Shown here one piece after another: positions 4,932-36,718 of a stretch of DNA of 64,000 nt (position 1 is the first letter of the stretch; each line of letters opens with the position of its first letter). Source of the DNA: an uncultured Anaerolineae bacterium (GTDB lineage Bacteria; Chloroflexota; Anaerolineae; Fen-1058); contig CAYNML010000025.1 of NCBI GenBank assembly GCA_964398185.1, positions 4,031-68,030 of the forward strand, read 5' to 3'. The notes below the pieces were generated by a model, which saw only the letters and a program-made list of their open reading frames with translations, was not told the DNA's origin and did no database searches. The translations under genes and the position numbers were made by a program.

Positions 4932-4945
4932 TGCACTATTGCGAC

Positions 4946-8399: not shown

Positions 8400-8439
8400 T
8401 GCCGGCGGCGCATTAATCATCTCACGCCAAGCCGCCAAG

Positions 8440-16253: not shown

Positions 16254-16466
16254 GATTGATACGTGATGGCCGCTAACCCGCTCCTATGAAGAGGCGGTCG
16301 AAGAGGCATTGTGCTTCGGCGGGATTAACGGGGTGATGCACCGCATCAAAGTCAAAACCAAACGGGACGTCGCCGACATCCCGCCGCTGCTGTGAATTAA
16401 GCGGCGGCCTCGACCCCAGTCCGCAAATTGACAGACGCCCCATCCTCAGATAAACTGATAGGCGAG

Positions 16467-16487
16467 CCTCACGCATTACGCATTACG
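16467..16487. repeat. Heptamer tandem repeat (CCTCACG)(CATTACG)(CATTACG)
   Basis: 7-bp period NNNNACG x3 immediately upstream of ATG 16493 (within 6 nt). Same family as the arrays at 36677 and 62825. Confidence 0.6.
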
Positions 16488-16492
16488 CCATC

Positions 16493-17221
16493 ATGTCCAA
16501 ACATATTCACGACCTCATCAGCAACATCGGCAAAGTCAGCCACCGCGAAGAAATCGAGCGCAGCGGGCTGGACCCCAAACTCGCTTTGCTGCGCGTGTGG
16601 CAGGGCGAGCGGCTGGCACGCACCTACGCCGACCTGCTCGATCAGCCGCGCTATCGTCCCGCCTGCCTGTTCTTCCTCGACGACATCTACGCCGCCCGCG
16701 ATTTCAGCCAGCGCGATCATGATCTGGAAACGATGTATGACTTCATGCGCCGCTTTGTGCCGGACGCCGTCTCGCGCCCGGCCGCGCTGACGATCAAGCT
16801 GCATCGCATGAGCGAAGCGCTGGATCGCAAGTTGTTGGACGTGCTGGCGAATCAACTGGGCATCACGGACTCGATCACGGTGGAGCAGTACGCCGAGGCA
16901 TATCGGCGCTGTAACAACTACCAGGAACGCGTGGAGCAGATCGACGCCATCATTGATATTTGCGAACACATCGACAGTATCGTGCGCAATCCCATTACCG
17001 GCCCGGCGCTGGGCATCGCCAAGCGGCCGCTGCGCGGGGCGGGTTACGGCGAAGTGGTGTCATTCCTGGAGCGCGGGTACGACAGCTTCAAACGGATGCA
17101 CGGCTCGCGCCACTTCCGCAAGACGCTGCAAGAGCGCGAAATGGGCATCCTCGATCGGTTCTATGCCCACGATCCTGATCCCTTCCGGTTTGAGATGTCC
17201 CTGCCGGCCGCCGCGGAGTAA
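16493..17221 (+). CDS. Hypothetical protein
   Basis: 242-aa ORF with coding-like codon usage and no recognisable motif. Confidence 0.4.
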   Translation: MSKHIHDLISNIGKVSHREEIERSGLDPKLALLRVWQGERLARTYADLLDQPRYRPACLFFLDDIYAARDFSQRDHDLETMYDFMRRFVPDAVSRPAALTIKLHRMSEALDRKLLDVLANQLGITDSITVEQYAEAYRRCNNYQERVEQIDAIIDICEHIDSIVRNPITGPALGIAKRPLRGAGYGEVVSFLERGYDSFKRMHGSRHFRKTLQEREMGILDRFYAHDPDPFRFEMSLPAAAE

Positions 17222-17307
17222 TCCGTGAAGCGCAGATCTGCCGATCGGGTTGGAGAAAACCTGATATTGATCCTATTGAACAGATGACAGTCAGATAGCA
17301 CGTCCGA

Positions 17308-17337
17308 TTGACCCCCCTGCCTGATCGGCGGTACAAT
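17308..17337 (+). promoter_or_regulatory. Sigma70-like promoter TTGACC-18-TACAAT upstream of the patatin gene
   Basis: TTGACC at 17308-17313 and TACAAT at 17332-17337 with an 18-bp spacer, 32 bp before ATG 17369. Confidence 0.45.
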
Positions 17338-17368
17338 CTACGTAACCCCTCAGCCCAAGGCAGGAACC

Positions 17369-18724
17369 ATGCGTTCACCGTTGCGCAACCATCGCGGTAA
17401 AACGGCGCTCGTGCTGGCCGGCGGCGGCCTCTCTGGCGCGATGTACGAAATCGGCGCGCTGCGCGCCATCGATGACATTCTGACCGATCGCACCGTCAAC
17501 GACTTTGACATCTACGTGGGCACCAGCGCCGGGGCCATTGTGTGCGCGCTGCTGGCCAACGGCGCCACGCCGGAGATGATGCTGCAAGGGTTGTCCGGCG
17601 ATCTGCCCGGCATCCGGCCCATCGAACGCCGCGATCTATTCCACCTGAACGTGCAGGATGTGTTGAAATTAGGCATCAAACTGCCGCGCACCCTGTTGGG
17701 CGCGTGGACGCATTATCTGCGCTACATTACCGACATCACGCTGTTCGATCTGTTGTGGTCTGTCTCGGAGGCGCTGCCCACCGGCATGTACGACAGTCTG
17801 GCGCTGGAAGCCTACATGCGCGAGATTATCAACAACTTCGGCGGCGTCAACGATTTCACCCGGCTGCGCCCGGAATTGCACATCGTCGCCACCGATCTCG
17901 ACTCGGGCAAGCGCGCCGTGTTCGGGCCGGACAGCAACCAGGCGGTGCCCATCTCGCTGGCGATTGCGGCCTCGACGGCGGTGCCGCTGCTCTATCGGCC
18001 GGTACGCATCGCCGATCACGACTACGTCGACGGCAGTGTGCGCGGCAATGCCAGCGTCGATCTGGCCGTCGAGCGCGGCGCCACACTGGTCATCGTGATC
18101 AATCCGCTGGTGCCGTTTGACAATAGCGATCACCGCTCGGTGCCTTTTATCGGCCCCGATGGCAGTTATCTCAGCGACAAGGGCTTGACGGGCGTCGCGC
18201 AGCAGGTGGGGCGCATCCAATCACACGGCGGCTTGATCTATCACATCAAGCAATTGCGCAAGACGCACCCCGAAGTGGACATCGTGCTCATCGAGCCAAC
18301 CCAGCGCGACTACCAGATGACGTTCTCCAACATCATGCGTTATTCCACGCGCCTGACGCTGGCGCGGCACGGTTTCGAAACTGTCACGCTGAATCTGGCG
18401 GAGAATTACGCTCATTTCGACACGCTGCTCAGCCGCCACGGCATCCCCATCTCCGAGGCGCTGGTGGACGAGGAACTGGAAGCAATCCGCGCGGCCGACA
18501 ACCGGCCGGGCGTGTTGCAGCGCATTCTGGAACGCCGCCCGGTGCAACTGAAGCGATCGGCCAGGCCGACAACGGTGACCGAATCGTTGTCGAACCTCAG
18601 TGACACGCTGGATGAGCTCGACGCGATCTTGAGCGATTGGCCGAATCGTGAAAGCCGACGAGCCGCGCATCCCTTGCCAGCCGATATTATTGGCGCGCGC
18701 ACCCCGGCGCGATCGCACGAGTGA
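17369..18724 (+). CDS. Patatin-like phospholipase with ~150-aa C-terminal extension
   Basis: Oxyanion hole LAGGGLSG, nucleophile elbow GTSAG and the Asp of the catalytic dyad in DGSV. Confidence 0.8.
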   Translation: MRSPLRNHRGKTALVLAGGGLSGAMYEIGALRAIDDILTDRTVNDFDIYVGTSAGAIVCALLANGATPEMMLQGLSGDLPGIRPIERRDLFHLNVQDVLKLGIKLPRTLLGAWTHYLRYITDITLFDLLWSVSEALPTGMYDSLALEAYMREIINNFGGVNDFTRLRPELHIVATDLDSGKRAVFGPDSNQAVPISLAIAASTAVPLLYRPVRIADHDYVDGSVRGNASVDLAVERGATLVIVINPLVPFDNSDHRSVPFIGPDGSYLSDKGLTGVAQQVGRIQSHGGLIYHIKQLRKTHPEVDIVLIEPTQRDYQMTFSNIMRYSTRLTLARHGFETVTLNLAENYAHFDTLLSRHGIPISEALVDEELEAIRAADNRPGVLQRILERRPVQLKRSARPTTVTESLSNLSDTLDELDAILSDWPNRESRRAAHPLPADIIGARTPARSHE

Positions 18725-18743
18725 ACCGGCCTGGCTGCCAATG

Positions 18744-18773
18744 AAAACCGGGGCTCATCCAAGCCCCGGTTTC
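18744..18773. terminator. Bidirectional rho-independent terminator
   Basis: AAACCGGGGCT-catcca-AGCCCCGGTTT with flanking A/T runs, between the convergent patatin and acyltransferase genes. Confidence 0.7.
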
Positions 18774-18780
18774 GCGTGGT

Positions 18781-20046
18781 CTAGCCTTTGAACACTGATT
18801 TGCGCTGTGCCAGCCGGTCGTTGATCATCCTCTGCACCACGCCGCGCACCTGATCGGTGAGCTGTGAAACGAGCAGCAAGTTCTGATCGGCCTTGGGGCC
18901 GTAGCCGTCCATGGAAATTGGTTCGCCAATGTCGATGTACCACTTCGTCGGCATTGGAATAACCCCCAACAGGCCCAGCCACGGGAAAGTCGGCGTAATC
19001 GGAAAGAACGGGAAACCGATCAGCTTCGCAATCAGATCGGATTTGGCCAATGACACATAGGTTTCTTCTGCGCCGACGACGGACACCGGCAGGATGGGGG
19101 TATTGGTCTTCAAGGCCATGCGGATGAACCCGCCTCGCCCAAAGCGGGCCAGCTGGTAGCGATCTTTGTACAGCTTGCCGACGCCCTTGATGCCCTCCGG
19201 AAACACGGATACCAGCTCGTCGTTTTCCAGCAAACGGATGCCATTATCCTCCGTCGCGGTCACTTGCCCGCACTTCACAAAGAGGGGCGAAACAAAAGGC
19301 AAAGTGGGAAACCACGAAGCGAACATCGTGCGCACCAGGCGATTACCGGGGTGCTCCAACCGGACCGCCGAGGCCAGCATCGCGCCATCAAACGGCAGCT
19401 GCCCCGAGTGATTTGCGACGAATAAAGCGCGGCCCGTGCCGGGCACTCGTTCCAGCCCCGTCGTCGTGACGCGCCAGTACTTACGATAGAGAAATTCGAA
19501 AAACGGCGACACGGCTTCCAGCACTTCGAGGTCCATGCCCCATTCGTCGGTTTCGTATTCGCCGCGCAGGCGGCGCTGCACCGTGGCCGCCTGGAACTGC
19601 ACCGTCTGGTTGGCGATGAACCACGCGCCCTTCCATGTGTCGATGTCCAACAAATCGCCCGCCACCGAGCGCAGCTTGTCGAAGTTGGACTTGCCCAGGA
19701 TGTTCTGGGCGGCCTCGATCGCATTTTGCGCGCCGGGCAGGTTTGCGGGCGCAAAGGCCGGGCTGAGTTCCCTTAAGCGAGTGATCAGATCGTTGAGCTC
19801 TTGTACCAACTGCTGCTGCAACTGCTCGACCGGCAGTTCTGCCTCACCGGCTGCCGTACCGCCGTTCGACGCAGGTTGCGCGGACGCGAACGCCGGTTCA
19901 GGCGGGGGGCCGCTGATCTCCTCGAGGGCCGCCACGGCTTTCTTGACCTTCACCTCGCCGTTACCGTCGGCTGGCTTCAATTCCGTCGGGACCGCCGGGG
20001 CTGATCGGGTGGTGCGACGCCGGGTGGGTTTCTTCGGCTCGGTCAT
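18781..20046 (-). CDS. Lysophospholipid (1-acyl-glycerol-3-phosphate) acyltransferase family protein with ~170-aa basic/Pro-rich N-terminal extension
   Basis: LPLAT HX4D motif in VANHSGQLPFDG and FPEG motif in VSVFPEGIKG. The start overlaps the upstream gene stop (ATGA). Confidence 0.75.
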   Translation of the reverse strand: MTEPKKPTRRRTTRSAPAVPTELKPADGNGEVKVKKAVAALEEISGPPPEPAFASAQPASNGGTAAGEAELPVEQLQQQLVQELNDLITRLRELSPAFAPANLPGAQNAIEAAQNILGKSNFDKLRSVAGDLLDIDTWKGAWFIANQTVQFQAATVQRRLRGEYETDEWGMDLEVLEAVSPFFEFLYRKYWRVTTTGLERVPGTGRALFVANHSGQLPFDGAMLASAVRLEHPGNRLVRTMFASWFPTLPFVSPLFVKCGQVTATEDNGIRLLENDELVSVFPEGIKGVGKLYKDRYQLARFGRGGFIRMALKTNTPILPVSVVGAEETYVSLAKSDLIAKLIGFPFFPITPTFPWLGLLGVIPMPTKWYIDIGEPISMDGYGPKADQNLLLVSQLTDQVRGVVQRMINDRLAQRKSVFKG

Positions 20047-21158
20047 TGGCTCTTCTCCTCGTACAGACTGCTATCCGCGGCTTCGGCAATCGTATCCGCC
20101 TGGGTGCGACCGCGCGGGCGCGGGCGCGCTGCGCCGCGGGCCATTTGCTGCCGCAGGTTCTTGCGGCGTTCGATGACGGTCCGCAGTCGTTCTTCCTCGG
20201 CCTCCTGCGCGGTCAGGCCGGAAACGGCCGCTTTCTGTTTCTGCAGGGCGGCAAATTCGCGCACCACGTCTTCGGCCAAGTGGGCGGGCTGGAAATCCAG
20301 GTCTTCACGCATGCGTTGCAGATCGCCCACGCACGGATAGCGCAGGTAATCGAAATCGATCGAGGTGAACTGCGGGCCGAGGAACGATTCGCCCAGATAA
20401 GCGAAGGGGTGGAACACCGGCACCGGAAACTTGCCCGCCAGGCCGGTCAGTTTGAACAACGGCATCGCGCCCGGCGCCGCAATGTTGTAAGTGCCGGGCA
20501 CTTCATAGATGACGGCGTGGGCCAACGCACCAGCCACATCATCTTCGTGCACGATCTGCACCACGGGATCGAAGCCCAGCAGCATGGGCGCCGTGTCGTC
20601 GCGCAGAAACCGCGCGAGGGGGGAAGCGACGGTCGGACCCAGGATGTGCGCGAAACGCAGGATCGTGATTTTGAGTTGGGGCGCCTGGCTGCGAAAGCCG
20701 GCGATGAAGGTCTCAATCTCCAACAGGTCGCGCAGCGTCCCGAAGTTGCGTTTGGCATGCAGCGGGTGATCCTCGCGCAAGAAAGCAGAGTTCCCCGGCT
20801 GCGCGCCGTACAACAGCGTGCTGCTCATCAAGACGATGTGCTGGACGCCCGCTTCAGCACACGCGCTGAGCACCTTCATCGTGCCCATGACGTTGAATTC
20901 GAAGGCGCTCTCGCTAGGCCGGGCGCTTTCCTTGAAAGCCAGGTGCACGTAGGTGTGCACTTTCTCCTCGCGCAGCAGTTCCACCAGCAGCGGATTGCGC
21001 ATATCGGCTTGAATGAAGTCGATGCCGCTGCCCTGCCGCGGCGGTTCGGTGTCCAGCCCGATCACGTGCAGCCCGGGTTCGGCTAGCAAGTGATCGGCCA
21101 CGCGCCCGCCCCAATAACCGGCGACGCCATCAATGAGGACGACACGCTGTTCAGTCAT
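20043..21158 (-). CDS. NAD(P)-binding Rossmann epimerase/dehydratase-like protein (atypical extended SDR; no clear YxxxK)
   Basis: GxxGxxG in GVAGYWGG with extended-SDR length and topology; no canonical YxxxK was seen by eye. Confidence 0.65.
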   Translation of the reverse strand: MTEQRVVLIDGVAGYWGGRVADHLLAEPGLHVIGLDTEPPRQGSGIDFIQADMRNPLLVELLREEKVHTYVHLAFKESARPSESAFEFNVMGTMKVLSACAEAGVQHIVLMSSTLLYGAQPGNSAFLREDHPLHAKRNFGTLRDLLEIETFIAGFRSQAPQLKITILRFAHILGPTVASPLARFLRDDTAPMLLGFDPVVQIVHEDDVAGALAHAVIYEVPGTYNIAAPGAMPLFKLTGLAGKFPVPVFHPFAYLGESFLGPQFTSIDFDYLRYPCVGDLQRMREDLDFQPAHLAEDVVREFAALQKQKAAVSGLTAQEAEEERLRTVIERRKNLRQQMARGAARPRPRGRTQADTIAEAADSSLYEEKSQ

Positions 21159-21619
21159 AGTGAAGTCTCCTGCTCCAAGATCAAGTGTTCCAGTCCTTTG
21201 ACTTTCAACAAAGCGGGATACTGCTGATACAGCGGCGCGACGGCGGGGACGAGGCGCAGCACTTTGATCACTGGGCCGGTGGTCTGTATCTGTCGCCGCG
21301 CTAGCGCCGAACCCAGGTTCACACGCCCAAGCCAGAAGTCGTGCGCCAGGTCGCCTGTCATGATCATGACAATCTCAGGTTTCAGATCGCACGAGCCGAG
21401 GAAGACATCGACATAGCCGCCGAATTGGGTGGGCGCGCCGCACGCGCTAATCGTGATCTGGGCTTCAGGGCTGGAATAGCGCAGCTGAATCACCGTGTCG
21501 GATCGCGCGATGATGGGGCCGATGTTGGGGTCGCGTGCGGCGCGCTGCAGCAATTCACCGATGGTCTCATAGAACTGCTGGCTGTCCTGAAACACGCTCA
21601 TGGCCGTCTCTCCCGCCAC
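21155..21619 (-). CDS. SCP2 sterol/lipid-carrier domain protein
   Basis: C-terminal SCP2-like segment ...GSALARRQIQTTGPVIKVLRL...; first gene of a translationally coupled three-gene operon. Confidence 0.5.
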   Translation of the reverse strand: MAGETAMSVFQDSQQFYETIGELLQRAARDPNIGPIIARSDTVIQLRYSSPEAQITISACGAPTQFGGYVDVFLGSCDLKPEIVMIMTGDLAHDFWLGRVNLGSALARRQIQTTGPVIKVLRLVPAVAPLYQQYPALLKVKGLEHLILEQETSL

Positions 21620-21734
21620 TGCAACGAGGCTGTACTTATCTTACCCTAAATCGCAGTCGGTGTACAGTCCTGCCGCAGCGCGTTACCGGTGCTGGCGGCA
21701 GCAAAATCTAACAAACATTTTATACGCCAGGCCC

Positions 21735-21772
21735 TTGACATTCATGACGCACTGTGTTATTATAATGACGCA
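21735..21772 (+). promoter_or_regulatory. Sigma70 promoter TTGACA-17-TGtTATTAT with two direct ATGACGCA repeats 21 bp apart (candidate PhaR operator)
   Basis: TTGACA at 21735-40 and an extended -10 at 21755-63. ATGACGCA at 21744-51 and 21765-72. The same TGACGCA motif also sits in the hairpin loop upstream of phaR (22248-54). Confidence 0.5.
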
Positions 21773-21839
21773 ACGCGCAATGGTCAAGCGCGGAGCAACT
21801 GACAAAATCAAACTTCACTCTCTCTCAGGAGGATCTATC

Positions 21840-22208
21840 ATGGAAAACGTCGTCGAGCAGGTCAAGCCGGAAGTCGAGAAGGCCAAGGAAGTTATGGCGG
21901 AAGAGACGAACAAGCTGCAAGAAGCGCTGCATCGCGTGATGCTGGCGGCCGTGGGTACCGTGGGTCTGGTGCAGGACGAGCTGGAGCACTTTGTGAACAA
22001 AGCCGTCGAACGCGGCCAGATTGCGGAGAAAGAAGCACGCCAGACGGTGCATGACGTGACCGAGAAGCGCAAAGGCGCCGAGAAGGAAGTGGACAAGCGC
22101 TTTGAGGATATGCTGGTCAAGTTGAACATCCCAACCAAGAACGACATCGCCGCGCTGAACGACAAGATCGCCGACCTCACCAAGAAGGTCGAGTCGCTGA
22201 AGAACTAG
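21840..22208 (+). CDS. Phasin family PHA granule-associated protein (TIGR01837-like)
   Basis: The charged helical protein ends ...LNIPTKNDIAALNDKIADLTKKVESLKN, typical of the phasin family. RBS AGGAGG lies 6 nt before ATG 21840; the ORF-track N-terminus from 21600 is an over-extension. Confidence 0.6.
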   Translation: MENVVEQVKPEVEKAKEVMAEETNKLQEALHRVMLAAVGTVGLVQDELEHFVNKAVERGQIAEKEARQTVHDVTEKRKGAEKEVDKRFEDMLVKLNIPTKNDIAALNDKIADLTKKVESLKN

Positions 22209-22237
22209 GCCGCGGCCTAATCTGGCGCACATACAGA

Positions 22238-22272
22238 CAGGGGAGCGTGACGCACAAAGTCACCCTCCCCTG
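22238..22272 (+). terminator. Stem-loop CAGGGGAG...CTCCCCTG with T-rich tail after the phasin gene
   Basis: 8-bp GC stem enclosing GTGACGCACAAAGTCAC, followed by TGTTGGTTGT. Probable terminator or attenuator. A TATAAT box lies at 22280-85, ahead of phaR. Confidence 0.45.
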
Positions 22273-22302
22273 TTGGTTGTATAATAGTCGCGAGGTGAAT
22301 CC

Positions 22303-22899
22303 ATGCCGCTCATTAAACGCTACGCTAATCGCAAACTGTACGACACCGAATCGAAACGCTATATCACCCTCGACGGCATCGCCGAGATGATCCGCCAGCA
22401 GCAGGACGTCAAGGTGGTCGATCACGAAACCGGCGAAGACATCACCGCGCTGACGCAGGCGCAGATCATCTTCGAGCAAGAACGCAAGCTGCGCAGCGGC
22501 ATTCCGCGCACCGTGTTCACCAACATCATCCAGACCAGCAGCGACACCATCAGCCAGGTCTGGCACGCCATCGTTCCCCCAGATGAAATGAAGAAAGCCG
22601 TAGACTCGGAAATTGAGAAGCGCGTGCAAGCGCTGATCAAGGCCGGACAGTTGACAGACGACGACGGCATTCGGCTGTTGGATCAATTGCTCACGCCGCC
22701 CACTCCGGAGCCGGAAGCCCCCAAACCCGATCGAACTGCGCCCCTCGGCGGCCTGGAGAAGCTCATCAAGCAGCGCGCCCCCAGCCAGGAGCAGTTGGAG
22801 CAGCTCACCAAGCAGGTTGAGGCACTTACCGCCGAGGTCGAGCGCCTAACCAAGCTCAAGCTGCCGCGCCCGCCCAGGCCACCGTCCAACAGCAAATAG
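22303..22899 (+). CDS. phaR: Polyhydroxyalkanoate synthesis repressor PhaR
   Basis: MPLIKRYANRKLYDTESKRYITLDGIAEMI...GEDITALTQAQIIFEQE is the PhaR N-terminal DNA-binding domain. The C-terminal tail is coiled-coil and Pro-rich. Confidence 0.8.
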   Translation: MPLIKRYANRKLYDTESKRYITLDGIAEMIRQQQDVKVVDHETGEDITALTQAQIIFEQERKLRSGIPRTVFTNIIQTSSDTISQVWHAIVPPDEMKKAVDSEIEKRVQALIKAGQLTDDDGIRLLDQLLTPPTPEPEAPKPDRTAPLGGLEKLIKQRAPSQEQLEQLTKQVEALTAEVERLTKLKLPRPPRPPSNSK

Positions 22900-23065
22900 C
22901 GCCCGCGTAAATTAGCCGAACGGCGCGCACCATCTACAACTGGACGCAAACAAAAACTCGCAAATCTCCCAACTCAACAAGAGCCGGAAGTGTGATATAC
23001 CTAGGCTGGACACTGGTCGATCCAGCCAATTGCTCAGTGTATCTTCCCAATCAGACACCACACCC

Positions 23066-23668
23066 ATGATCACGATCACCGGAACGACTCGCCAGACCTT
23101 TGGTTTTCCCGCCGACAGCGCCACCGCCAGCAGTTTCTATCGCGACTTCAGCCGCATCCTGCGCTACCTGCCGCACATCCATTTGATCAAAGCCTACGGG
23201 CCGGATCAATTCCGGGTGATGTATCACACCCTGGAACTCAGTGTGTACCGCGTGCGGATCTACTGCGACCTGCAGGTGTGGTATGACGAGGTCGCCCAGA
23301 CCCTGCACGTAGCGCCGCTGCTGAACAAGCCGCCCGTGAAGTCCGAGGCCACAGTGCATTCGCTCACGGCGCAGGGCTATTTCACCAGCCAGTCGATCTT
23401 CCGGCCGCACGGCGATCACAGTTTGGTCGATTATCAGTTGAGCCTGGAAGCGCGCCTGCCCAAACCGTTCGGCCTGATGTTGATGCCCGACCGGGTCATT
23501 GAGCAGATTGCCAGCAACATCACCGAGTGGCGCATTCACGAGATCGCCGGGGGGTTTATCAAGCGATCCGTACAGGAATATCAGGGAGGCGCAGCTCACG
23601 CGGTGCGCCCAGTGCGGCCAGAATGGCATCCTGCTGTTGCCGCGCCGCAGCCTCACCGCGGTCGATGA
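23066..23668 (+). CDS. Hypothetical protein (possible DUF1997-like)
   Basis: ~200-aa ORF. Its 3' end overlaps the C-terminus of the convergent patatin gene by ~110 nt. Confidence 0.35.
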   Translation: MITITGTTRQTFGFPADSATASSFYRDFSRILRYLPHIHLIKAYGPDQFRVMYHTLELSVYRVRIYCDLQVWYDEVAQTLHVAPLLNKPPVKSEATVHSLTAQGYFTSQSIFRPHGDHSLVDYQLSLEARLPKPFGLMLMPDRVIEQIASNITEWRIHEIAGGFIKRSVQEYQGGAAHAVRPVRPEWHPAVAAPQPHRGR

Positions 23669-24374
23669 GGTAAGCCGCCCGATTGAACATGAGCGAGTTG
23701 AAGCCGGCCAACGTCGGCTGGATCAGACAATCCACGGCGTCCAACCCCCCGCCCGATCGCTGGATCAGCGTCTCGAGGGCCAGCGCCCCAAAGCGCAGAG
23801 GCCCCCCGCGCCGCCGCAGGTGCGGCTGCATCAAATCTACCCCAATGACATAGTCCGCACCCAGAGTGCGGATTTGCTTTCCGGGCAGGTTGCACGACAC
23901 TCCGCCATCACCCAGCAGGCGGCCATCACGCTCCACCGGCTCCACAAAACCCGGCACCGCGCAGCTGGCATGCACCGCCGTTGCGACACGCCCTTTATTG
24001 ATCAGCACCGGCTCGCCCGTCATGAGATCGGTGGCGACCACTGCAAACGGAATCCGCAGATCGTCAAACTCCACGTCGCCGATCAGATCGAGCAGATAGC
24101 GTTCGAGTTTCTTGAAGTGAATAAAGCCCCGCCGCGGCCACACCAGCCGCGCGATGCGTCGCCAGCCGATCTGCAATGCCCGCCGATTCATCTCCTCCAA
24201 CGGCACACCCGCGCAATACACCGCGCCGATGATCGAGCCGGCGCTGACACCCGTCACACAATCGATCGGGATGTCGTGCTGCGTCAGCACGTTCAGCACG
24301 CCAATGTGCGCCGGGCCGCGTGAGATGCCCCCGCTCAACGCCAGGCCGATGCGCTTATTGCCAGGAATGGTCAT
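23559..24374 (-). CDS. Patatin-like phospholipase (RssA-like)
   Basis: LSGGISRG oxyanion hole, GVSAG nucleophile elbow and DGGV catalytic Asp. Start taken at ATG 24374 (MTIPGNKRIG). Confidence 0.75.
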   Translation of the reverse strand: MTIPGNKRIGLALSGGISRGPAHIGVLNVLTQHDIPIDCVTGVSAGSIIGAVYCAGVPLEEMNRRALQIGWRRIARLVWPRRGFIHFKKLERYLLDLIGDVEFDDLRIPFAVVATDLMTGEPVLINKGRVATAVHASCAVPGFVEPVERDGRLLGDGGVSCNLPGKQIRTLGADYVIGVDLMQPHLRRRGGPLRFGALALETLIQRSGGGLDAVDCLIQPTLAGFNSLMFNRAAYLIDRGEAAARQQQDAILAALGAPRELRLPDIPVRIA

Positions 24375-24384
24375 GGAAAGAGCT

Positions 24385-26034
24385 TTAAGGCGCCGCGCTC
24401 CCAAGCGGAGGGCGCACGTTCGCGCCAGGCTTGGCCGGCACCAGGCTCATGGCATATTCAGCCAAGGCGGTGATCGTCAGGCTGGGATTGACGCCGGGAT
24501 TGGCGGGCATGATCGAACCGTCGACGACGAACAGCCCGGGGTAGTTGTGAATCTCGCAATTGAGATCGATCACGCCGTCCTGATCGCTCAAGCCAAACGG
24601 CACGCCGCCCAAGATGTGCGCCGTCATCGGAATGTTGAGCAGCCCTTCATTCAGCGAGCCGAGCGGGATGCCGTTGGTCTTCTGGGCGAAACGCCGCGTC
24701 GCCGCATGACCGATATCGATCTTGCTGGGGATTGTGTGTTCAGCATCCGGCCGCGATACCAGATTCTTGCGCCAGGCGGTGAAGATGCTGCGCCCCAGCC
24801 GCAGCCGGATGCGATTGTCCTCCGTCTGCATCACCAGGATAATGGTCGAGCGCTGCGCCCAGCCGGGCAGCAGATGTGTTTTGGCAAAATCGCGCGGGCG
24901 CGTGAAGATTTGCGCGGCAGTCTTGAAGAAGCGCGTGATGATACGCCCGCCGCTATCGACCAGCGGCCCGGCCAGGAAGCGCATCAGTGAGGAACCCGCC
25001 GGGTAGCGCACCGGCTCGATGGTGGTCACATCGTCGGCGTGGAAGATGGACGTGATGGCGATGCCTTCCGAATAGTTGGTTTTCAACTCGCGCGCGGTGG
25101 ACCCCAGCAGCGCCTCGCTGTTGGTGCGCACCAGGTTGCCCAGCTGCTGCGAAAGGCGGGGCAGCGAGTGGGTGACATCGCGGCAGCGGAATAACAAGCG
25201 CAGGGTGCCCAGTGTCCCCGCCGAGAAGATCACATTGCGGGCGCGCACCACACGATCGGGTTTGGAGAATACCGCCGTCGCGCTGCGATAGATCACTTCA
25301 TAGCGCGCGCCGTCGGGTTGATCGGGCGGCAGCGGGTGCACATCATGCACTTCAGTTTCAGGCCAGACCTGCGCGCCCCACTTCTCAGCCAGATACAAGT
25401 AGTTCTTGACCAGTGTATTCTTAGCGCCGTGACGGCAGCCGACCATGCAGCCGCCGCAATGAATGCAGCCGGTCCGATCGGGTCCTTCACCGCCGAAGTA
25501 AGGATCGGGCACCGTCTTGCCCGCTTCGCCGAAAAATGTACCGACGTTGGTAGGCTTGAACGTGCCCTGCATATTCAACTCAGCCGCGATGTCCTGCATG
25601 ACAAAATCAGCCGGCCACAAACACGGATTGGGATTGACGCCCAACATGCGCTTGGCCGTCACGTAGTGCGGCATAAGGACGGTCTTCCAGTCGGCCAGAT
25701 GCGACCACGCCGGCGCCGCAAACAGTTTATCACTGGGAACCATCAGCACGTTGGCGTAGCCCAGGCTGCCGCCGCCCACGCCGCTGCCGTGCAGCACAAA
25801 GACATCACGAAAAGGGCTGATCTGCAAGATGCCAAAGCAGCGCAAGACCGGGAACCACAGATATTTGAAGACATTCCAGTTAGACTTGGGAAAGTCCTGG
25901 TCGCGGAAGCGCTTACCACGTTCCAGCACCAGCACGCGATAACCCTTCTCGGTCAGGCGCAGCGCTGACACGCTGCCCCCGAATCCCGATCCGACGATCA
26001 CGTAGTCGAAACACTCAGGCATGGGCTTGGCCAT
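24385..26034 (-). CDS. GMC-family FAD-dependent oxidoreductase (cholesterol oxidase / long-chain alcohol oxidase-like)
   Basis: N-terminal FAD-binding YVIVGSGFGGSV with GMC length and C-terminal motifs. Overlaps the downstream patatin start (operon). Confidence 0.8.
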   Translation of the reverse strand: MAKPMPECFDYVIVGSGFGGSVSALRLTEKGYRVLVLERGKRFRDQDFPKSNWNVFKYLWFPVLRCFGILQISPFRDVFVLHGSGVGGGSLGYANVLMVPSDKLFAAPAWSHLADWKTVLMPHYVTAKRMLGVNPNPCLWPADFVMQDIAAELNMQGTFKPTNVGTFFGEAGKTVPDPYFGGEGPDRTGCIHCGGCMVGCRHGAKNTLVKNYLYLAEKWGAQVWPETEVHDVHPLPPDQPDGARYEVIYRSATAVFSKPDRVVRARNVIFSAGTLGTLRLLFRCRDVTHSLPRLSQQLGNLVRTNSEALLGSTARELKTNYSEGIAITSIFHADDVTTIEPVRYPAGSSLMRFLAGPLVDSGGRIITRFFKTAAQIFTRPRDFAKTHLLPGWAQRSTIILVMQTEDNRIRLRLGRSIFTAWRKNLVSRPDAEHTIPSKIDIGHAATRRFAQKTNGIPLGSLNEGLLNIPMTAHILGGVPFGLSDQDGVIDLNCEIHNYPGLFVVDGSIMPANPGVNPSLTITALAEYAMSLVPAKPGANVRPPLGSAAP

Positions 26035-26071
26035 ATCCCCTCCCCGGGATGAGCTCGTTGGCGGGTGAATC

Positions 26072-26476
26072 TCACTCGATTTCTTTCACCATATGATAGA
26101 TGAGGTCGGTATCCGACACGACGGCGAGCGGTTTGTGTTTGCCATTCTCGTCGCGCACCACCACCACGCGGTGGATGTGGTGCTCCAGCAGCAGATTCGC
26201 TACAGCCGCCAGTCGATCTTCCGGCGCCACCGTCACCACCTCCCGGGTCATGTAATCACTCACCGGCTGGCGCTGCCAATCATCTCTGGCCAGATAGCCG
26301 CGCAGCACGTCGCTGCGTGTAATGATGCCTGTCAGGTAACCCGCCGCATCGGTAACAACCAGCGAACTGATGTCGTGTTCCACCATCTTGGTCACGGCAT
26401 CAATCAGCGGCGCATCGGATGCGCAACAATGACAGCCGAAGCGTTTGGCCTCGAGGACAGTGCGGCCTTGTTTCAT
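26072..26476 (-). CDS. CBS domain pair protein
   Basis: Two CBS motifs (…SLVVTDAAGYLTGIITRSDV…, …HRVVVVRDENGKHKPLAVVSDTDL…). Internal ATG 26476 has RBS AGGAGA; the ORF-track N-terminal 72 aa is low-complexity extension. Confidence 0.7.
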   Translation of the reverse strand: MKQGRTVLEAKRFGCHCCASDAPLIDAVTKMVEHDISSLVVTDAAGYLTGIITRSDVLRGYLARDDWQRQPVSDYMTREVVTVAPEDRLAAVANLLLEHHIHRVVVVRDENGKHKPLAVVSDTDLIYHMVKEIE

Positions 26477-26555
26477 GCTGATCTCCTGCAAGGATGTGGA
26501 TGAGCCGTGCTCAAAGTGTACTCCATCGTGAAATGAAATACAAGCGTCCGTGAAT

Positions 26556-27719
26556 CTAGAAGTCGACTGGCCGGCCGTCGTAAGCGCATTCAAAGAGGCG
26601 GCGCAAGTCGTCCGCGCTGGGAAGGCGCTGGCTGGTGGCGATCTGCGTGTCGGTCTCAGCGCGCCGCACCAGTTCCGGGAGAGCCTGCTCAAAAGCTGGC
26701 CGATCGATCCCCAGCTCGCGCACGGTCAACGGCTGATTGAGTTGTCGCTCCAGATCGCGCACAGCCGCGGTTAAACTCGCCGCCCCGATCGGTTCCGTGT
26801 CCGCCCGCAGGCCCAGCGTCTTGGCGATGTCTGCATAACGGCTATCGCCGCCGTTGGCCGTAAACTCGATCGTGTAGGGGAGAAATAACGCCACCGCGCG
26901 CCCATGCGATACCCGAAACAACGCGCCCAGCGCATGGCCCATGCAGTGCGCCAGCGTGGCCTGCGAATTACCAAAGCCGATGCCGCCAATAGCAGCCGCA
27001 TTGTGCATGTGCTCGCGCGCTTCCCGATCCGATCCGTCAGCGTAGGCGCGCGGCAAATAGGCGAAGATCAACCGCACGGCGTGCAGGCACAGCGCGTCGG
27101 AGAAATCGCTGCGCCAGGTGCTCTGATAACTCTCGATCGATTGCGTCAGCGCGTCGAGGCCGGTATCGGCTGTGATGGACGGCGGCAGCGACATGACCAA
27201 CGCCGGATCGATGATGGCGTAATCGGGCAGCATGCCGCGCGTGCCTACACCCACCTTACGCTGCTCCACCGTATCGGTCAGCACGGCGTACCACGTTGCT
27301 TCCGACCCCGTGCCCGAGGTGGTGGGGATGGCGATCAACCTGGCCTTGGCGCGCATTGTATACAGATCGAAGGGATTGACGTTGATGGCTTCGATGCCGG
27401 GATTCTCGTACAGCAGCCACGCCGCCTTGGCCGCATCCAGGCACGATCCGCCGCCGAGGCCGATGATCCAATCGGGCTGGTGTTGAGCCAGAGCGTCGGC
27501 GCAGCGCTGGGCCATTTGCAGCGACGGCTCCGGCTCCACCTCGTCGAAGATCGTGCAGGCCAGTCCCGCCGCGCCGAGCTGATCGATCACGAGCTGCGCC
27601 AATCCCAACTGCACGATGTTACGATCAGTGATCACAAAGGCGCGCTGTCCCGTCAGCTGCGCCAGGAAGCTCAGCGCTTCTTCGCCGAAGACGACGTGCG
27701 GGCTGTCAAAGAACCACAT
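26556..27719 (-). CDS. Iron-containing (group III) alcohol dehydrogenase
   Basis: Fe-ADH motifs GGGSCLDAAK and GxxHxxxH (HCMGHALGALFRVSHG). Confidence 0.8.
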   Translation of the reverse strand: MWFFDSPHVVFGEEALSFLAQLTGQRAFVITDRNIVQLGLAQLVIDQLGAAGLACTIFDEVEPEPSLQMAQRCADALAQHQPDWIIGLGGGSCLDAAKAAWLLYENPGIEAINVNPFDLYTMRAKARLIAIPTTSGTGSEATWYAVLTDTVEQRKVGVGTRGMLPDYAIIDPALVMSLPPSITADTGLDALTQSIESYQSTWRSDFSDALCLHAVRLIFAYLPRAYADGSDREAREHMHNAAAIGGIGFGNSQATLAHCMGHALGALFRVSHGRAVALFLPYTIEFTANGGDSRYADIAKTLGLRADTEPIGAASLTAAVRDLERQLNQPLTVRELGIDRPAFEQALPELVRRAETDTQIATSQRLPSADDLRRLFECAYDGRPVDF

Positions 27720-27790
27720 CGTTCACGCTCCTGAAACGACAAAGGGACACGATCGGAGTGATGTGTCCCTTGCGCAAATTGTCGGCGAGT

Positions 27791-28201
27791 TTAGGCCGGC
27801 CAGTCGGTGGCGACGCGCGTCGCGCACAAGACCAGTTCCGTGGCGGCTTTGGGCGCTTTCATGATCTTGAGCATGTTGCCCTTCAGTTTCAGCTGGCGCG
27901 TGACCATGCCCTGAATCGGATCAAGTTTCTTGTCCACCACTTTGCGCCAGACGGGGTACGTCGCTTCGATGACGAACTCGGGCGCCTTGGCCGCAGCGTC
28001 GGCGGCGCGGAAGGCAGCGCGGCATTCGCCGTGCCACAGATCGACGTAGAGATACACTTCAGCTGGTTCACCGGGCATGCCGGTCACCACCCAGTAGAAA
28101 TCGCCTTCCCACGTCTTGGCCGCATCGCGATAACCGTCGCTCTTGTTCAGTTCGTCTTTCAGCGCCGCCATCCACTCTTCCGATGCAAACTTGATACCCA
28201 T
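27791..28201 (-). CDS. SCP2 sterol-carrier domain protein
   Basis: SEEWMAALKDELNKSDGYRDAAKTWEGDF ... MVTRQLKLKGNMLKIMK is the SCP2 fold signature. Confidence 0.65.
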   Translation of the reverse strand: MGIKFASEEWMAALKDELNKSDGYRDAAKTWEGDFYWVVTGMPGEPAEVYLYVDLWHGECRAAFRAADAAAKAPEFVIEATYPVWRKVVDKKLDPIQGMVTRQLKLKGNMLKIMKAPKAATELVLCATRVATDWPA

Positions 28202-28270
28202 GCTGGCCTCCTTAAGCCCTCAATGTTGTATCCATTGTATAACCGCCTGCGCCGCGAGGCAAGTGGCAGT

Positions 28271-28299
28271 TGATCTTTACCGCAGGCGATCATACAATG
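28271..28299 (+). promoter_or_regulatory. Sigma70-like promoter TTGATC-17-TACAAT upstream of the ACBP gene
   Basis: Read directly from the sequence. It is followed by a GC-rich ~110-nt 5'UTR carrying nested inverted repeats (CATTCCCGC...GCGGGAATC; CCGCGCtttGCGCGG). Confidence 0.4.
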
Positions 28300-28413
28300 G
28301 CCTAATCGTGCAACGTCATTCCCGCACGCCTTCGCCATGCGCGCCCCCGCGCTTTGCGCGGACAGGGCGTGGCGGGAATCCAGAGACCGATCTCATCTCA
28401 CAGGGAGGATTCC

Positions 28414-28677
28414 ATGTCTACCGATCTGCAATCCCGCTTCCAACAGGCCGCCGCAGATTCCAAGCAGCTGCCCAAGCGCCCCGATAACAACACCCTGCTC
28501 AAGTTGTACTCGCTCTACAAGCAGGCCACGGTGGGCGATGTCACTGGCAGCCGCCCCGGCGGCTTCGACATGGAAGGCAAGATGAAGTACGATGCGTGGG
28601 CCAGGCAAAAGGGCAAAGCCAAAGACGCGGCCATGCAGGAGTACGTCGATCTGGTGGAGAGTCTGAAAGCGAAGTAA
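28414..28677 (+). CDS. Acyl-CoA-binding protein (ACBP/DBI family)
   Basis: LKLYSLYKQATVGDVTG...KYDAWARQKGKAKDAAMQEYVDLVESLK is the ACBP four-helix signature. RBS GGGAGG before ATG 28414; the ORF-track start is an upstream TTG. Confidence 0.8.
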   Translation: MSTDLQSRFQQAAADSKQLPKRPDNNTLLKLYSLYKQATVGDVTGSRPGGFDMEGKMKYDAWARQKGKAKDAAMQEYVDLVESLKAK

Positions 28678-28679
28678 GT

Positions 28680-29315
28680 ATGCCCATCTACGACATCTCG
28701 CTCACCCTCTCCAACGATCTGCCCGTGTGGCCCGGCGACACGCCGATCGATCTGCGGCGCAACAAAGATATGCAGCAGGACGAGTTGTACACGCTGAGCC
28801 AGATCACCACCACCGTCCACGTCGGCTCGCACCTCGACGCGCCCATGCACTTCCTACGCGAGGGGCACGGCGTTGATCAGATCGATCTCAACAAACTGAT
28901 CGGCCCGTGCTTCGTCGTCGATCTGCCTGACATCGACAGCATCGACGCGCAGGCGTTGGAGCAGGCCAACATCCCGGCGAATGTCACACGCCTGTTGTGC
29001 CGCACGCGCAACTCAGAATACTGGATGCGCGGCGACAAGGTGTTCCACACCGATTTCGTGGCGATCGATCCGTCGGGCGCGGAATGGATCGTGCAGCGCG
29101 GCATCCAACTCGTTGGCGTCGATTACCTCTCGGTGGGCGCATACGAGGGCGGCATCCCCACCCACGAGATTCTGCTCAGCAACGGGGTCGTGCCCGTGGA
29201 AGGCCTCGATCTGTCCCGCATCGAGCCGGGTGAATACCAACTGATCTGCCTGCCGCTGAAATTGAAGGATTGCGATGGCGCGCCGGTGCGAGCGGTGTTG
29301 ATGCGGGATGAATAG
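28680..29315 (+). CDS. Cyclase family protein (kynurenine formamidase/arylformamidase-like)
   Basis: HVGSHLDAPMHF and the DLS... C-terminal pattern are typical of cyclase-family hydrolases. Start taken at internal Met (MPIYDISL). Confidence 0.7.
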   Translation: MPIYDISLTLSNDLPVWPGDTPIDLRRNKDMQQDELYTLSQITTTVHVGSHLDAPMHFLREGHGVDQIDLNKLIGPCFVVDLPDIDSIDAQALEQANIPANVTRLLCRTRNSEYWMRGDKVFHTDFVAIDPSGAEWIVQRGIQLVGVDYLSVGAYEGGIPTHEILLSNGVVPVEGLDLSRIEPGEYQLICLPLKLKDCDGAPVRAVLMRDE

Positions 29316-29476: not shown

Positions 29477-30802
29477 ATGAGCAAGATCAAAGTCATCATC
29501 ATGGGCGCCGCCGGACGCGACTTCCACAATTTCAACACCGTGTTCCGCCACAACGACGCCTACGAAGTCGTGGCCTTCACCGCGACGCAGATTCCCAACA
29601 TCGAAGGCCGCCGCTATCCGCCCGAGCTGGCGGGCAAGCTGTATCCCGCCGGGATTCCGATCTATCCCGAGTCCGATCTGACCCGCTTGATCAAAGAGCA
29701 TGACGTCGATCAAGTGATCTTCGCCTATTCGGACGTGCAGCACGAATACGTGATGCACAAGGCCTCGCAGGTGTTGGCTGCCGGGGCCGACTTCCGCTTG
29801 ATCGGGCCGAAGGAAACGCAGATCAAATCGAGCAAGCCCATCGTCTCGATCGGCGCGGTGCGCACCGGCGCGGGCAAGAGCCAGACCACGCGCCGCGTGA
29901 GCGAAGTGCTGCAGTCGCTGGGCTACAAGGTCGCCGCCGTGCGCCATCCCATGCCCTACGGCGATCTGACCAAGCAGGTCGTGCAGCGCTTCGCGGCCTA
30001 CAAAGACTTGGACGATCATGAGTGCACGATCGAGGAACGCGAGGAATACGAGCCGCACATCGATCGCGGCGTGGTGATCTATGCAGGCGTGGACTACGAG
30101 GCGATTCTGCGCCAGGCCGAGCAGGAAGCCGACATCGTGGTGTGGGACGGCGGCAACAACGACATCTCGTTCTACAAGAGCGATCTGCACATCGTCGTGG
30201 CCGACCCGCATCGCCCCGGCCACGAACTTTCGTATCACCCCGGCGAAACGAATCTGCGCATGGCCGATGTCGTCGTCATCAACAAGATCGACACCGCCGA
30301 TCTGGATCACGTCTCCAAGGTGCGCGACAGCATCATGAAAGTGAATCCCGACGCGACCGTCGTCGAAGCCGCTTCGCCGATCTTCGTCGACAATCCGGCG
30401 GCCATCAAAGGCAAGAGCGTGCTCGTCATCGAAGACGGCCCCACGCTGACCCACGGCGAGATGGCCTATGGTGCGGGCGTGGTAGCGGCGCGGCGCTTTG
30501 GCGCGGCGGAGATCATCGATCCGCGCCCGTATGCCGTCGGCTCGATCGTGGCGACGTACCAGAAGTATCCAACCACCGGCGCGGTGCTGCCCGCGATGGG
30601 TTACGGCGCGGAGCAGATGCGCGAACTGGGCGAGACCATCAACAACACCCCGTGCGATCTGGTGTTGGTGGCCACCCCGATCGATCTACGGCGCGTCGTC
30701 GAGATCAACCGTCCGTCGCAGCGCGTGCGCTATGAGCTGCAGGAGATCGGCCAGCCGACGCTGGTGGACATCCTTGAAGGGAAGTTCGGGCGCAAGCAGT
30801 AA
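29477..30802 (+). CDS. P-loop NTPase, cyclic 2,3-diphosphoglycerate synthetase-like protein
   Basis: N-terminal Rossmann-like KVIIMGAAGRDFHNFN and Walker A GAVRTGAGKSQT. Family assignment from memory only. RBS AGGAGAG before ATG 29477. Confidence 0.4.
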   Translation: MSKIKVIIMGAAGRDFHNFNTVFRHNDAYEVVAFTATQIPNIEGRRYPPELAGKLYPAGIPIYPESDLTRLIKEHDVDQVIFAYSDVQHEYVMHKASQVLAAGADFRLIGPKETQIKSSKPIVSIGAVRTGAGKSQTTRRVSEVLQSLGYKVAAVRHPMPYGDLTKQVVQRFAAYKDLDDHECTIEEREEYEPHIDRGVVIYAGVDYEAILRQAEQEADIVVWDGGNNDISFYKSDLHIVVADPHRPGHELSYHPGETNLRMADVVVINKIDTADLDHVSKVRDSIMKVNPDATVVEAASPIFVDNPAAIKGKSVLVIEDGPTLTHGEMAYGAGVVAARRFGAAEIIDPRPYAVGSIVATYQKYPTTGAVLPAMGYGAEQMRELGETINNTPCDLVLVATPIDLRRVVEINRPSQRVRYELQEIGQPTLVDILEGKFGRKQ

Positions 30803-34479: not shown

Positions 34480-34552
34480 GGTGCCTGTAGCTCAATGGCA
34501 GAGTACTGGACTGTGGATCCAGGCGTTGCGGGTTCGACCCCCGTCAGGCACC
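34480..34552 (+). tRNA. tRNA-His (anticodon GTG) with encoded G-1
   Basis: Acceptor GTGCCTG/CAGGCAC with an extra 5' G, anticodon stem CTGGA/TCCAG with loop CTGTGGA, T-arm GGGTTCGACCCCC. Immediately downstream of hisS. Confidence 0.8.
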
Positions 34553-36676: not shown

Positions 36677-36718
36677 GAGCACGCATTACGCATCACGTTT
36701 TACGCATCACGCATCACG
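36677..36718. repeat. Heptamer tandem repeat (NNNNACG)x6: GAGCACG CATTACG CATCACG TTTTACG CATCACG CATCACG
   Basis: 7-bp periodic array in the convergent 3' intergenic region between the SCP2 gene and ftsK. Confidence 0.6.

Follow-up and report, generated by a model that had tools for sequence, protein, structure and literature searches.

A predicted phasin-PhaR switch of a distinct Anaerolineae type in an acyl-lipid gene island

The phasin-PhaR core of the locus

The DNA analysed here (64 kb, called the window) belongs to an uncultured Anaerolineae bacterium, as follows from homologues of its PhaR protein and a genome scan (NCBI labels "Thermoflexales" and "Anaerolineae bacterium"). Its positions 16493-29315 hold an island of genes for a phasin, the regulator PhaR, patatin-like hydrolases and further lipid-related proteins, in which an earlier note, made from the sequence alone, had seen a candidate module of neutral-lipid turnover. 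The gene map was based on open reading frame (ORF) listing, codon-position GC, Pfam and NCBIfam scans and precomputed Pfam annotation of identical metagenome contigs; every gene named in that note is present at the stated positions. The core of the locus consists of the phasin gene and phaR, which stand in tandem on the plus strand (a correction to the earlier reading for the phasin), together with the elements in front of them. Operator scores are those of a position weight matrix (PWM) described below.

21735-21763, plus strand: phasin promoter TTGACA-17-TATTAT (11/12 positions)
21744-21760: putative PhaR operator O1, ATGACGCACTGTGTTAT (26.9 bits), occupying the whole interval between -35 and -10 of this promoter
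21765-21781: putative PhaR operator O2, ATGACGCAACGCGCAAT, just downstream of the phasin -10 (17.8 bits)
21840-22208, plus strand: phasin, 122 aa, PF05597 type (Pfam 37.3 bits, threshold 28.8)
22236-22275, plus strand: GC-rich hairpin between phasin and phaR, just upstream of a TATAAT (22281)
22247-22263: operator-like palindrome GTGACGCACAAAGTCAC inside this hairpin (0.6 bits)
22303-22899, plus strand: PhaR, Anaerolineae type (PF07879 only, 96.5 bits)

The promoter at 21735 had been proposed in the note and is borne out. The description of the phasin as TIGR01837-like holds in part: the protein passes the Pfam threshold, but its TIGR01837 score of 62.2 bits is below the cutoff of 94.7. PhaR likewise scores 74.3 bits against TIGR01848, below the equivalog cutoff of 109.45.

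Operators at the phasin promoter

The operator consensus is a 17-bp palindrome, ATGACGC-N3-GCGTCAT. Thirteen genome loci (L004-L016) were searched by tblastn with the window proteins, and a PWM of the full palindrome, built from the sites of the genome loci, was used to score the window as well as genome and metagenome loci. The palindrome lies upstream of the phasin gene in 13/13 genome loci and is present in two copies in 11 of them, the second copy scoring 16.6-28.2 bits (17.8 bits in L004); L014 has a single site and is also the only one of the thirteen without a TTGAC-type -35 hexamer 5' of operator 1. A site equivalent to O1 was found in every Anaerolineae-type locus with upstream sequence. 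PWM matches of at least 20 bits are confined in the window to the phasin promoter, and shuffled sequence gives about 0.4 matches of at least 10 bits per 64 kb.

The region between phasin and phaR (22209-22302) folds with -39.9 kcal/mol (z = -4.2). The palindrome in front of phaR reaches 9.4-16.7 bits in L004-L007, L025 and L026 and 21.6 bits in L030. In the latter locus, whose PhaR is 48% identical to that of the window, the island is rebuilt in another order with two phasin paralogues (7740-8500, 11280-11830), each behind an operator pair, and an operator before phaR, so that five strong operators of 21.6-28.4 bits stand within 4 kb.

Two other candidate motifs were set aside. The PhaR site of alphaproteobacteria, TGC-N3-GCA, shows no enrichment in the window (49 matches, 45 expected). 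The 7-mer TGACGCA occurs 14 times across the window, with 16 expected, and was replaced by the 17-bp PWM.

Promoter and palindromes are arranged as one would expect if a repressor turned off both phasin and phaR; the binding of PhaR to these sites is inferred.

Two classes of PhaR loci

A metagenome scan returned close and remote relatives of PhaR, which fall into two non-overlapping classes, designated here type A (window, L004-L016, L022-L060) and canonical (L061-L101). They compare as follows.

PF05597 phasin upstream of phaR: type A, yes; canonical, no
17-bp operators: type A, yes; canonical, no
PF05233 domain in PhaR: type A, absent in six examined; canonical, present in four examined
DUF1997-like gene downstream: type A, often; canonical, no
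PhaB-like short-chain dehydrogenase/reductase (SDR) within 3.5 kb: type A, never; canonical, 9/9 loci with enough flank
Thiolase adjoining phaR: type A, never; canonical, yes in both loci checked
Patatin nearby: type A, frequent; canonical, no

Among the independent metagenome loci, 17 have a phasin, and 15 of these possess at least one operator of at least 18 bits; in the other two the sequence upstream is short or missing. The same scan gave no site of this strength in 21 canonical PhaR loci. Linkage to phaA, phaB or phaC was found in none of about 35 type-A loci. Neither these three genes nor a wax ester synthase/diacylglycerol acyltransferase (WS/DGAT) were present among the flanking ORFs scanned in related loci (L013-L016, L030, L040, L049 and L053 included).

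The order of the whole island is kept in L004-L007 and L009-L011 (PhaR identity 56-88%), and the same gene set is found in L022 and L030, which makes nine related genome and metagenome contigs in total. Full synteny is limited to one order-level lineage. Type-A PhaR recurs beside patatin, DUF1997-like and SCP2-like genes, and this association is rebuilt in other arrangements in L030, L033, L040, L042, L049, L051 and L053 (40-48% PhaR identity). In L040 and L042 (about 40% identity) the stop codon of PhaR shares bases with the start codon of a Pat451-type patatin (GTGA and ATGA), in front of which stands a Shine-Dalgarno sequence, so that phasin, PhaR and patatin form an operon under the operator; a patatin follows PhaR in L051 and L053 also. 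One distant carrier of the phasin-PhaR pair, with two strong operators, is the cultured Anaerolinea thermolimosa IMO-1.

The clustering of the island is not due to chance, since the island recurs in related loci with PhaR identity down to 48%. That these associations have been rebuilt in more than one arrangement speaks for a functional connection of the switch, at least with the patatins. As far as sequence allows, the type-A pair can be described as a PhaR-phasin switch specific to Chloroflexota, which has an operator of its own and is repeatedly partnered by patatins and lipid carriers.

Architecture of PhaR

The PhaR of the window is composed of an N-terminal PHB_acc_N DNA-binding domain (PF07879, residues 3-62) and a phasin-like C-terminal half (from about residue 89 to the end). 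The PHB_acc domain (PF05233) was absent in all six type-A PhaRs examined (window, L013, L015, L030, L040 and L049), whereas four canonical PhaRs of the same scan (L061, L067, L070 and L079) possess it. An hhalign comparison of the C-terminal halves of type-A PhaRs with phasins gave a probability of 98.7% (E = 2.4e-16, 96 columns, score 92.5). The match spans the motifs ExExFV..LVERGEI and NxPT+xD..L...I..L. Among the controls, a reversed phasin alignment scored 11.7, column-shuffled ones about 10 and 7-column-block-shuffled ones at most 41; the C-termini of canonical PhaRs matched phasins with a probability of 20%. Weak sub-threshold Pfam Phasin matches were seen at the C-termini of three type-A PhaRs, and direct BLASTP of the window phasin against PhaR was not significant (E = 0.48).

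In our reading, the regulator combines a DNA-binding domain with a phasin-like module, apparently a diverged copy of the phasin core that includes the leucine-zipper-like motif NxPT+xD...L...L...L. Through this module PhaR could attach to the inclusion or form a pair with the phasin.

DUF1997-like gene and the patatin units

The ORF directly after phaR, missing from the gene list of the earlier note, encodes a DUF1997-like protein. It opens the series of genes between phaR and the 3' end of the island:

23066-23668, plus strand: DUF1997-like protein, 200 aa (PF09366, E = 2.6e-4, below the Pfam threshold)
23559-24374, minus strand: patatin-like hydrolase Pat271, RssA-like, 271 aa (PF01734, 111 bits)
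24385-26034, minus strand: GMC flavoprotein, cholesterol-oxidase-like, 549 aa (NF058674, 586 bits, near-full length, cutoff 850)
26072-26476, minus strand: CBS-pair protein, first gene of the CBS-GMC-patatin unit (PF00571)
26556-27719, minus strand: iron-containing alcohol dehydrogenase, Fe-ADH (PF00465, PF25137)
27791-28201, minus strand: SCP2 lipid-carrier protein, 136 aa (PF02036, 45 bits)
28414-28677, plus strand: acyl-CoA-binding protein (ACBP), 87 aa (PF00887, 98 bits)
28680-29315, plus strand: cyclase-family hydrolase, 211 aa (PF04199, 86 bits)

The DUF1997-like gene lies directly 3' of phaR in 16 loci, including lineages at about 43% PhaR identity, and is the most constant third partner of the phasin-PhaR pair. 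For its product, Foldseek with a poor single-sequence AlphaFold2 (AF2) model (pLDDT 50) listed many START/Bet v 1 entries, but at TM below 0.25, too low to be of use.

Pat271 carries the motifs GGISRG, GVSAG and DGG. Its score of 132 bits against the RssA model NF007623 is below cutoff, and comparison with plasmids was uninformative, the replicons of Cupriavidus and Ralstonia matching at about 35% identity. Its gene starts 10 nt past the stop codon of the GMC gene. The best PDB matches of the GMC protein are cholesterol oxidases. The GMC gene is absent from L004-L007, and its copies in L009-L011 are 80-82% identical to that of the window, versus 54-70% for the neighbouring genes; such a pattern suggests that the gene either is constrained to an unusual degree or was replaced laterally.

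The other patatin lies at the opposite end of the island:

16428-16456, plus strand: promoter-like site of the FFLEELY-patatin operon, TTGACA-17-TAAACT (10/12 positions)
16475-16491: candidate PhaR operator ATTACGCATTACGCCAT, weak (14.1 bits), located 3' of this -10 and before the start codon of the FFLEELY gene
16493-17221, plus strand: DUF8198/"FFLEELY motif" protein, 242 aa (NF047641, 202 bits; PF26621)
17308-17337: promoter-like site of the patatin gene
17369-18724, plus strand: patatin-like hydrolase Pat451, 451 aa (PF01734, 93.8 bits)

The "hypothetical protein" of the earlier note belongs to the DUF8198/"FFLEELY motif" family; the separate promoter which the note had assigned to the 451-aa patatin is matched by the site at 17308-17337. 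As read from the sequence, the motifs of Pat451 are intact: GGGLSG (the GGGxxG oxyanion loop), GTSAG and DGS. The hexamers of the upstream promoter are kept in L004, L007 and L009. At the orthologous position L009 has a 15.8-bit operator-like site overlapping the -10, and no operator is evident at the equivalent position in L004 or L007. The FFLEELY gene is also paired with a patatin of about 435 aa in L021, a locus devoid of phasin and PhaR. A literature search on DUF1997 and FFLEELY found nothing on their function.

SCP2-like/SDR/acyltransferase operon

Between Pat451 and the phasin promoter lies an operon on the minus strand:

21638-21666, minus strand: promoter of the operon, TGTACA-17-TAAGAT, conserved
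21155-21601, minus strand: SCP2-like protein, 148 aa, first gene of the operon (43%-identical homologue and fold)
20043-21158, minus strand: extended SDR, epimerase/3-beta-HSD-like, 371 aa (PF01370, 65.9 bits)
18781-20046, minus strand: PlsC-family acyltransferase, 421 aa (PF01553, 50 bits), start overlapping the SDR stop by 4 nt

The earlier description of a coupled SCP2/SDR/PlsC operon stands with regard to the coupling, as start and stop overlap by 4 nt at both junctions, but the first protein has no Pfam SCP2 match. A search of PDB by sequence returned nothing for it either, and hhalign against the SCP2 protein of the window was negative (probability 5.8%). In its AF2 model (pLDDT 67.6), the top 19 Foldseek PDB matches are SCP2 or UbiJ-SCP2 domains (TM 0.5-0.65), and one 43%-identical homologue, P0166, carries PF02036. 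Because of this fold match and this homologue the label "SCP2-like" seems reasonable but is not proven. The nearest solved structures of the SDR are sugar epimerases (E about 1e-8 to 1e-10, N-terminal half). The acyltransferase has its domain at residues 192-323 after a long N-terminal extension, and a sequence search found no homologue of solved structure.

The TGTACA-17-TAAGAT/TAACAT promoter is present in 8/10 loci, 32-53 nt before the ATG; in a ninth locus, L024, the second hexamer is TAATAT. A further promoter-like site on the minus strand (21787-21759, TTGACC-17-TATAAT, 11/12), overlapping both PhaR operators, had been considered as a PhaR-controlled promoter of this operon. It was set aside because its conservation is partial, with the GTCAAG element found in some loci only, because it may be a by-product of the palindromes, and because a separate promoter is present in 8/10 loci.

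In L009-type islands a protein of 731-765 aa with a weak Shikimate_DH/adh_short Rossmann match, not encoded in the window, stands beside the SCP2-like gene (noted in L009, L010, L011, L022 and L040). The same five loci have a second SCP2-like paralogue beside the 451-aa patatin or the acyltransferase.

Reach of the regulon into the lipid genes

The lipid-turnover module proposed earlier is supported in part, at least for the patatin genes, to which phasin/PhaR are tied by synteny, coupling and, in some genomes, operators. Operator-like sites of 10.3-14.6 bits follow the conserved CBS-GMC-patatin promoter in L009-L011. In the PWM scan no operator was found at the promoters of Fe-ADH, SCP2 and ACBP. 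Co-transcription of the second phasin gene, Fe-ADH and patatin in L030 was not counted as proof of a regulon, a hairpin with a T-run being located between phasin2 and Fe-ADH. The regulon thus appears to reach the lipid genes only partly; most genes of the island have promoters of their own and are linked to the switch by position only.

Surroundings of the island

A housekeeping block for fatty-acid and phospholipid metabolism lies directly upstream of the island. Its order is L28, Asp23, FakA, two DegV, RecG, CoaD, L32, FabD and two FabG, continued by Asp23, NusB, TatAB, TatC and a 4HBT thioesterase. Asp23, FakA (Dak2) and the two DegV (FakB-like) at 1901-5776, just upstream of RecG, CoaD, L32, FabD and the two FabG, make up a complete fatty-acid kinase set; the second Asp23 gene is at 13785-14135. 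Downstream of the island a diacylglycerol kinase gene is located at 32580-32930. The lipid neighbourhood is therefore larger than first noted, yet part of it is ordinary membrane-lipid housekeeping (FakA/DegV/FabD/FabG).

The claim that PHA (polyhydroxyalkanoate) synthase is lacking was upheld for the 64-kb window and for about 7 kb upstream and 8 kb downstream of it; thiolase (PhaA), phaB and WS/DGAT were not found in the same region.

A third SCP2 gene (36315-36644, 109 aa, 65.6 bits) is situated 7 kb from the island. An operator-like site of 11.8 bits at 36685-36701, 41 nt past its stop codon and between convergent genes, is probably a chance match. At 29477-30802 a 441-aa P-loop protein is encoded with only weak CobW and LpxK-like matches; it is 93-94% identical in L004 and L007, versus 73-88% for its neighbours. 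The sole Rfam match in the window is one tRNA gene (34481-34552) directly after the histidyl-tRNA synthetase gene. An odd fusion of a PLP-dependent enzyme (PALP domain) with a C-terminal PD-(D/E)XK nuclease-like domain (PF13366) is found at 49393-50925. A PEBP-family protein (PF01161, phosphatidylethanolamine-binding) at 62289-62816, near the end of the window, is unlinked to the island.

Proposed mechanism and nature of the coated inclusion

The core of the locus is probably a self-contained, autoregulated switch of coat protein and repressor, of a distinct Anaerolineae type, with the patatins as the likely enzymes of the inclusion; we put the probability of this interpretation at roughly 0.65. 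The PF05597 phasin would coat a hydrophobic intracellular inclusion, and PhaR would bind the 17-bp palindromes and thereby shut the phasin and phaR genes. By analogy with PhaR/PhaP and MLDSR/MLDS, either the inclusion surface or pairing of the phasin with the phasin-like half of PhaR would pull the repressor off the DNA. The patatin hydrolases would be the most likely enzymes to act on the coated inclusion, because of their conserved synteny, their translational coupling in other lineages and the operators present in some genomes. Within the order-level lineage of the window, the switch is embedded in a conserved acyl-lipid island (SCP2-like/SDR/PlsC, Fe-ADH with SCP2, ACBP, cyclase and sometimes GMC), and the pair may here manage fat bodies rather than bioplastic granules.

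A number of points weigh against this interpretation. The inclusion, the DNA binding and the specificity of the hydrolases are all inferred. Every PF05597 phasin and PF07879 regulator characterised so far acts, to our knowledge, on PHA, and patatins are known PHA-granule enzymes. No wax-ester or triacylglycerol (TAG) synthase in the window or its flanks backs the neutral-lipid idea of the earlier note, nor was WS/DGAT found among the flanking ORFs scanned in related loci. Since the PWM was trained on the genome loci, the metagenome loci are its only independent test. Operators outside the phasin promoter are weak in the window (14.1 bits at the FFLEELY gene) or absent: the PWM scan found none at the CBS-GMC-patatin promoter, as in L004-L006, and the site before phaR has only 0.6 bits. 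The promoter of the SCP2-like/SDR/acyltransferase operon lies 80-130 bp from the PhaR operators without overlapping them. In the distant Anaerolineae loci L012-L016 (about 40% PhaR identity) the phasin-PhaR pair stands alone among unrelated flanks, in which no phaC was found. Finally, the homology between PhaR and phasins is visible at the profile level only, since a single-sequence phmmer search with the C-terminal half of PhaR against 1.84 billion representatives returned PhaR fragments and no phasins.

As for the coated material, we lean slightly towards an acyl-lipid body, at somewhat less than even odds, over PHA made by an unlinked synthase; the remainder falls to there being no inclusion at all. 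The conserved acyltransferase, SCP2, ACBP, thioesterase and fatty-acid genes, the missing pha linkage and the loss of PHB_acc are counted for acyl lipid. Lipid droplets of Rhodococcus sequester the regulator MLDSR (PMC5504291), and Anaerolinea rMAGs fall in a functional cluster with WS/DGAT in 23/24 rMAGs (PMC7572474). A more specific proposal appears rather unlikely, namely that in bacteria without PHA synthase the type-A pair coats and senses TAG, wax-ester or other ester-lipid bodies, which the patatins would mobilise and for which the SCP2-like/SDR/PlsC operon would build the ester without WS/DGAT. The strongest competitor, a serious one although we would not bet on it, is an ordinary PHA system, in which the synthase is encoded elsewhere, phasin and PhaR act on PHA granules, the patatins are PhaZh1-like depolymerases and the other lipid genes are unrelated neighbours. 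The pha genes are often unlinked, and both family assignments, PF05597 and PF07879, agree with such a system, as does the fact that most operons of the island have their own promoters without an operator. Nor does a patatin imply neutral lipid: PhaZh1 of Haloferax mediterranei is a patatin-like PHA-granule depolymerase, as Liu 2015 is cited in PMC4823750 and PMC6520949, and in Methylorubrum the mutation of phaR raises the expression of a patatin gene of the PhaZh1-like kind (PMC6520949). The survey evidence cuts both ways, phaABC being encoded in some Chloroflexota metagenome-assembled genomes (MAGs), those of Ca. Epilinea and Ca. Avedoeria, but absent from most Chloroflexota MAGs from wastewater plants, where PHA was not seen by Raman spectroscopy (PMC10746286). 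Several points speak against an ordinary PHA system: 0 of about 35 type-A loci are linked to phaA, phaB or phaC, versus the linked canonical loci; the window PhaR is devoid of PHB_acc; phasin and PhaR both remain below the NCBIfam equivalog/subfamily cutoffs; and even where the order is rearranged, the pair keeps its linkage with the genes for the SCP2-like protein, the acyltransferase, ACBP and the DUF1997-like protein.

The absence of an inclusion would fit maintenance of membrane lipids, where the patatins would be phospholipases, the acyltransferase would re-acylate lysophospholipids, SCP2 and ACBP would be shuttles and the phasin-like protein a binder of membranes or a factor of hydrophobic stress, with no storage body. 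The island does abut the housekeeping block with FakA, two DegV, CoaD, FabD and two FabG, a diacylglycerol kinase gene follows at 32580-32930, Pat271 is closest to RssA-type patatins, and no synthase of storage lipid or PHA was found in the window and its flanks. Nevertheless, the tight repressor design, in which a near-consensus promoter is bracketed by two operators, and the pairing of PhaR with a phasin fit sensing of an inclusion surface, and in L012-L016 the pair occurs away from any lipid gene, so that we regard membrane maintenance as improbable. Still less credit is given to co-location by chance or history, in which the gene order would be inherited within a single clade and phasin/PhaR would have no functional tie to their neighbours; this reading is already disfavoured. 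It would account for full synteny being restricted to one order-level lineage and for the pair alone being kept in distant Anaerolineae, but not for the association with patatin, DUF1997-like and SCP2-like genes being rebuilt in lineages at 40-48% PhaR identity, for the 4-nt PhaR-patatin overlaps among the rearranged loci, or for the operators before the patatin operons in L009-L011.

Implications

PhaR and phasin are textbook markers, read by annotators as "makes PHA". The Chloroflexota subtype appears to differ from them fourfold, in its domain architecture, its own operator, the absence of a pha link and the repeated link to patatins and lipid carriers; a literature search on Anaerolineae phasins found nothing relevant. 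Anaerolineae abound in sludge, soils and sediments, and if the target is not PHA, their PHA storage would be wrongly predicted from phasin/PhaR. If it is acyl lipid, the pair would represent a second, independent bacterial droplet-sensing repressor circuit, derived from PHA machinery. With either target the 17-bp operator offers a direct handle on the regulon, and the cultured A. thermolimosa IMO-1 makes the question testable.

Comparison with known systems

The PhaR-PhaP systems of Cupriavidus necator, Paracoccus denitrificans and Rhodobacter sphaeroides share with the window the PF07879 domain, a repressor gene adjoining that of the phasin, palindromic operators (here putative) whose half-sites are 3 bp apart, at the phasin promoter and, in the window in degenerate form, before the repressor gene, and the same presumed logic of release by the inclusion. 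In contrast to them, the PhaR of the window has a phasin-like C-terminal half instead of PF05233, the operator is ATGACGC-N3-GCGTCAT, the phasin is of the PF05597 type and no linkage to phaA/phaB/phaC was found. The circuit of the window is predicted to work like PhaR/PhaP but departs from it in the PHB_acc and equivalog-cutoff features and in the pha linkage. PhaF/PhaI of Pseudomonas putida belong to the same PF05597 family, with a common C-terminal zipper motif, and share the theme of a phasin module combined with one that binds DNA. In PhaF the latter is a histone-like tail, here it is the N-terminal, sequence-specific PhaR domain; the fusion here makes up the regulator and not the main coat, and no medium-chain-length PHA cluster is present.

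A patatin-domain hydrolase is likewise tied to a phasin/PhaR system in Haloferax mediterranei (PhaZh1) and in Methylorubrum extorquens, whose PhaZh1-like gene is up-regulated when phaR is deleted (PMC4823750, PMC6520949). The haloarchaeal PhaR and PhaP, however, are unrelated families within a phaEC cluster, and Pat451 and Pat271 are likened to PhaZh1 by the patatin domain alone. Lipolysis at eukaryotic lipid droplets combines a perilipin coat with patatin-domain TAG lipases (ATGL, SDP1, Tgl3-5). The likeness, which extends to SCP2 and ACBP as soluble carriers, is an analogy only, the coat proteins not being homologous. In Rhodococcus jostii, a single operon encodes MLDS, a small protein of the droplets, and the repressor MLDSR; MLDSR binds the promoter/operator of this operon and is sequestered by lipid droplets, so that the logic of the circuit is the same and the stored material is neutral lipid (PMC5504291). 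The proteins themselves are unrelated to those of the window (MLDSR has an XRE-type helix-turn-helix and MLDS has PAKKA repeats) and the system is actinobacterial, but for the lipid reading it is, by analogy of its circuit, the closest functional counterpart of the type-A pair.

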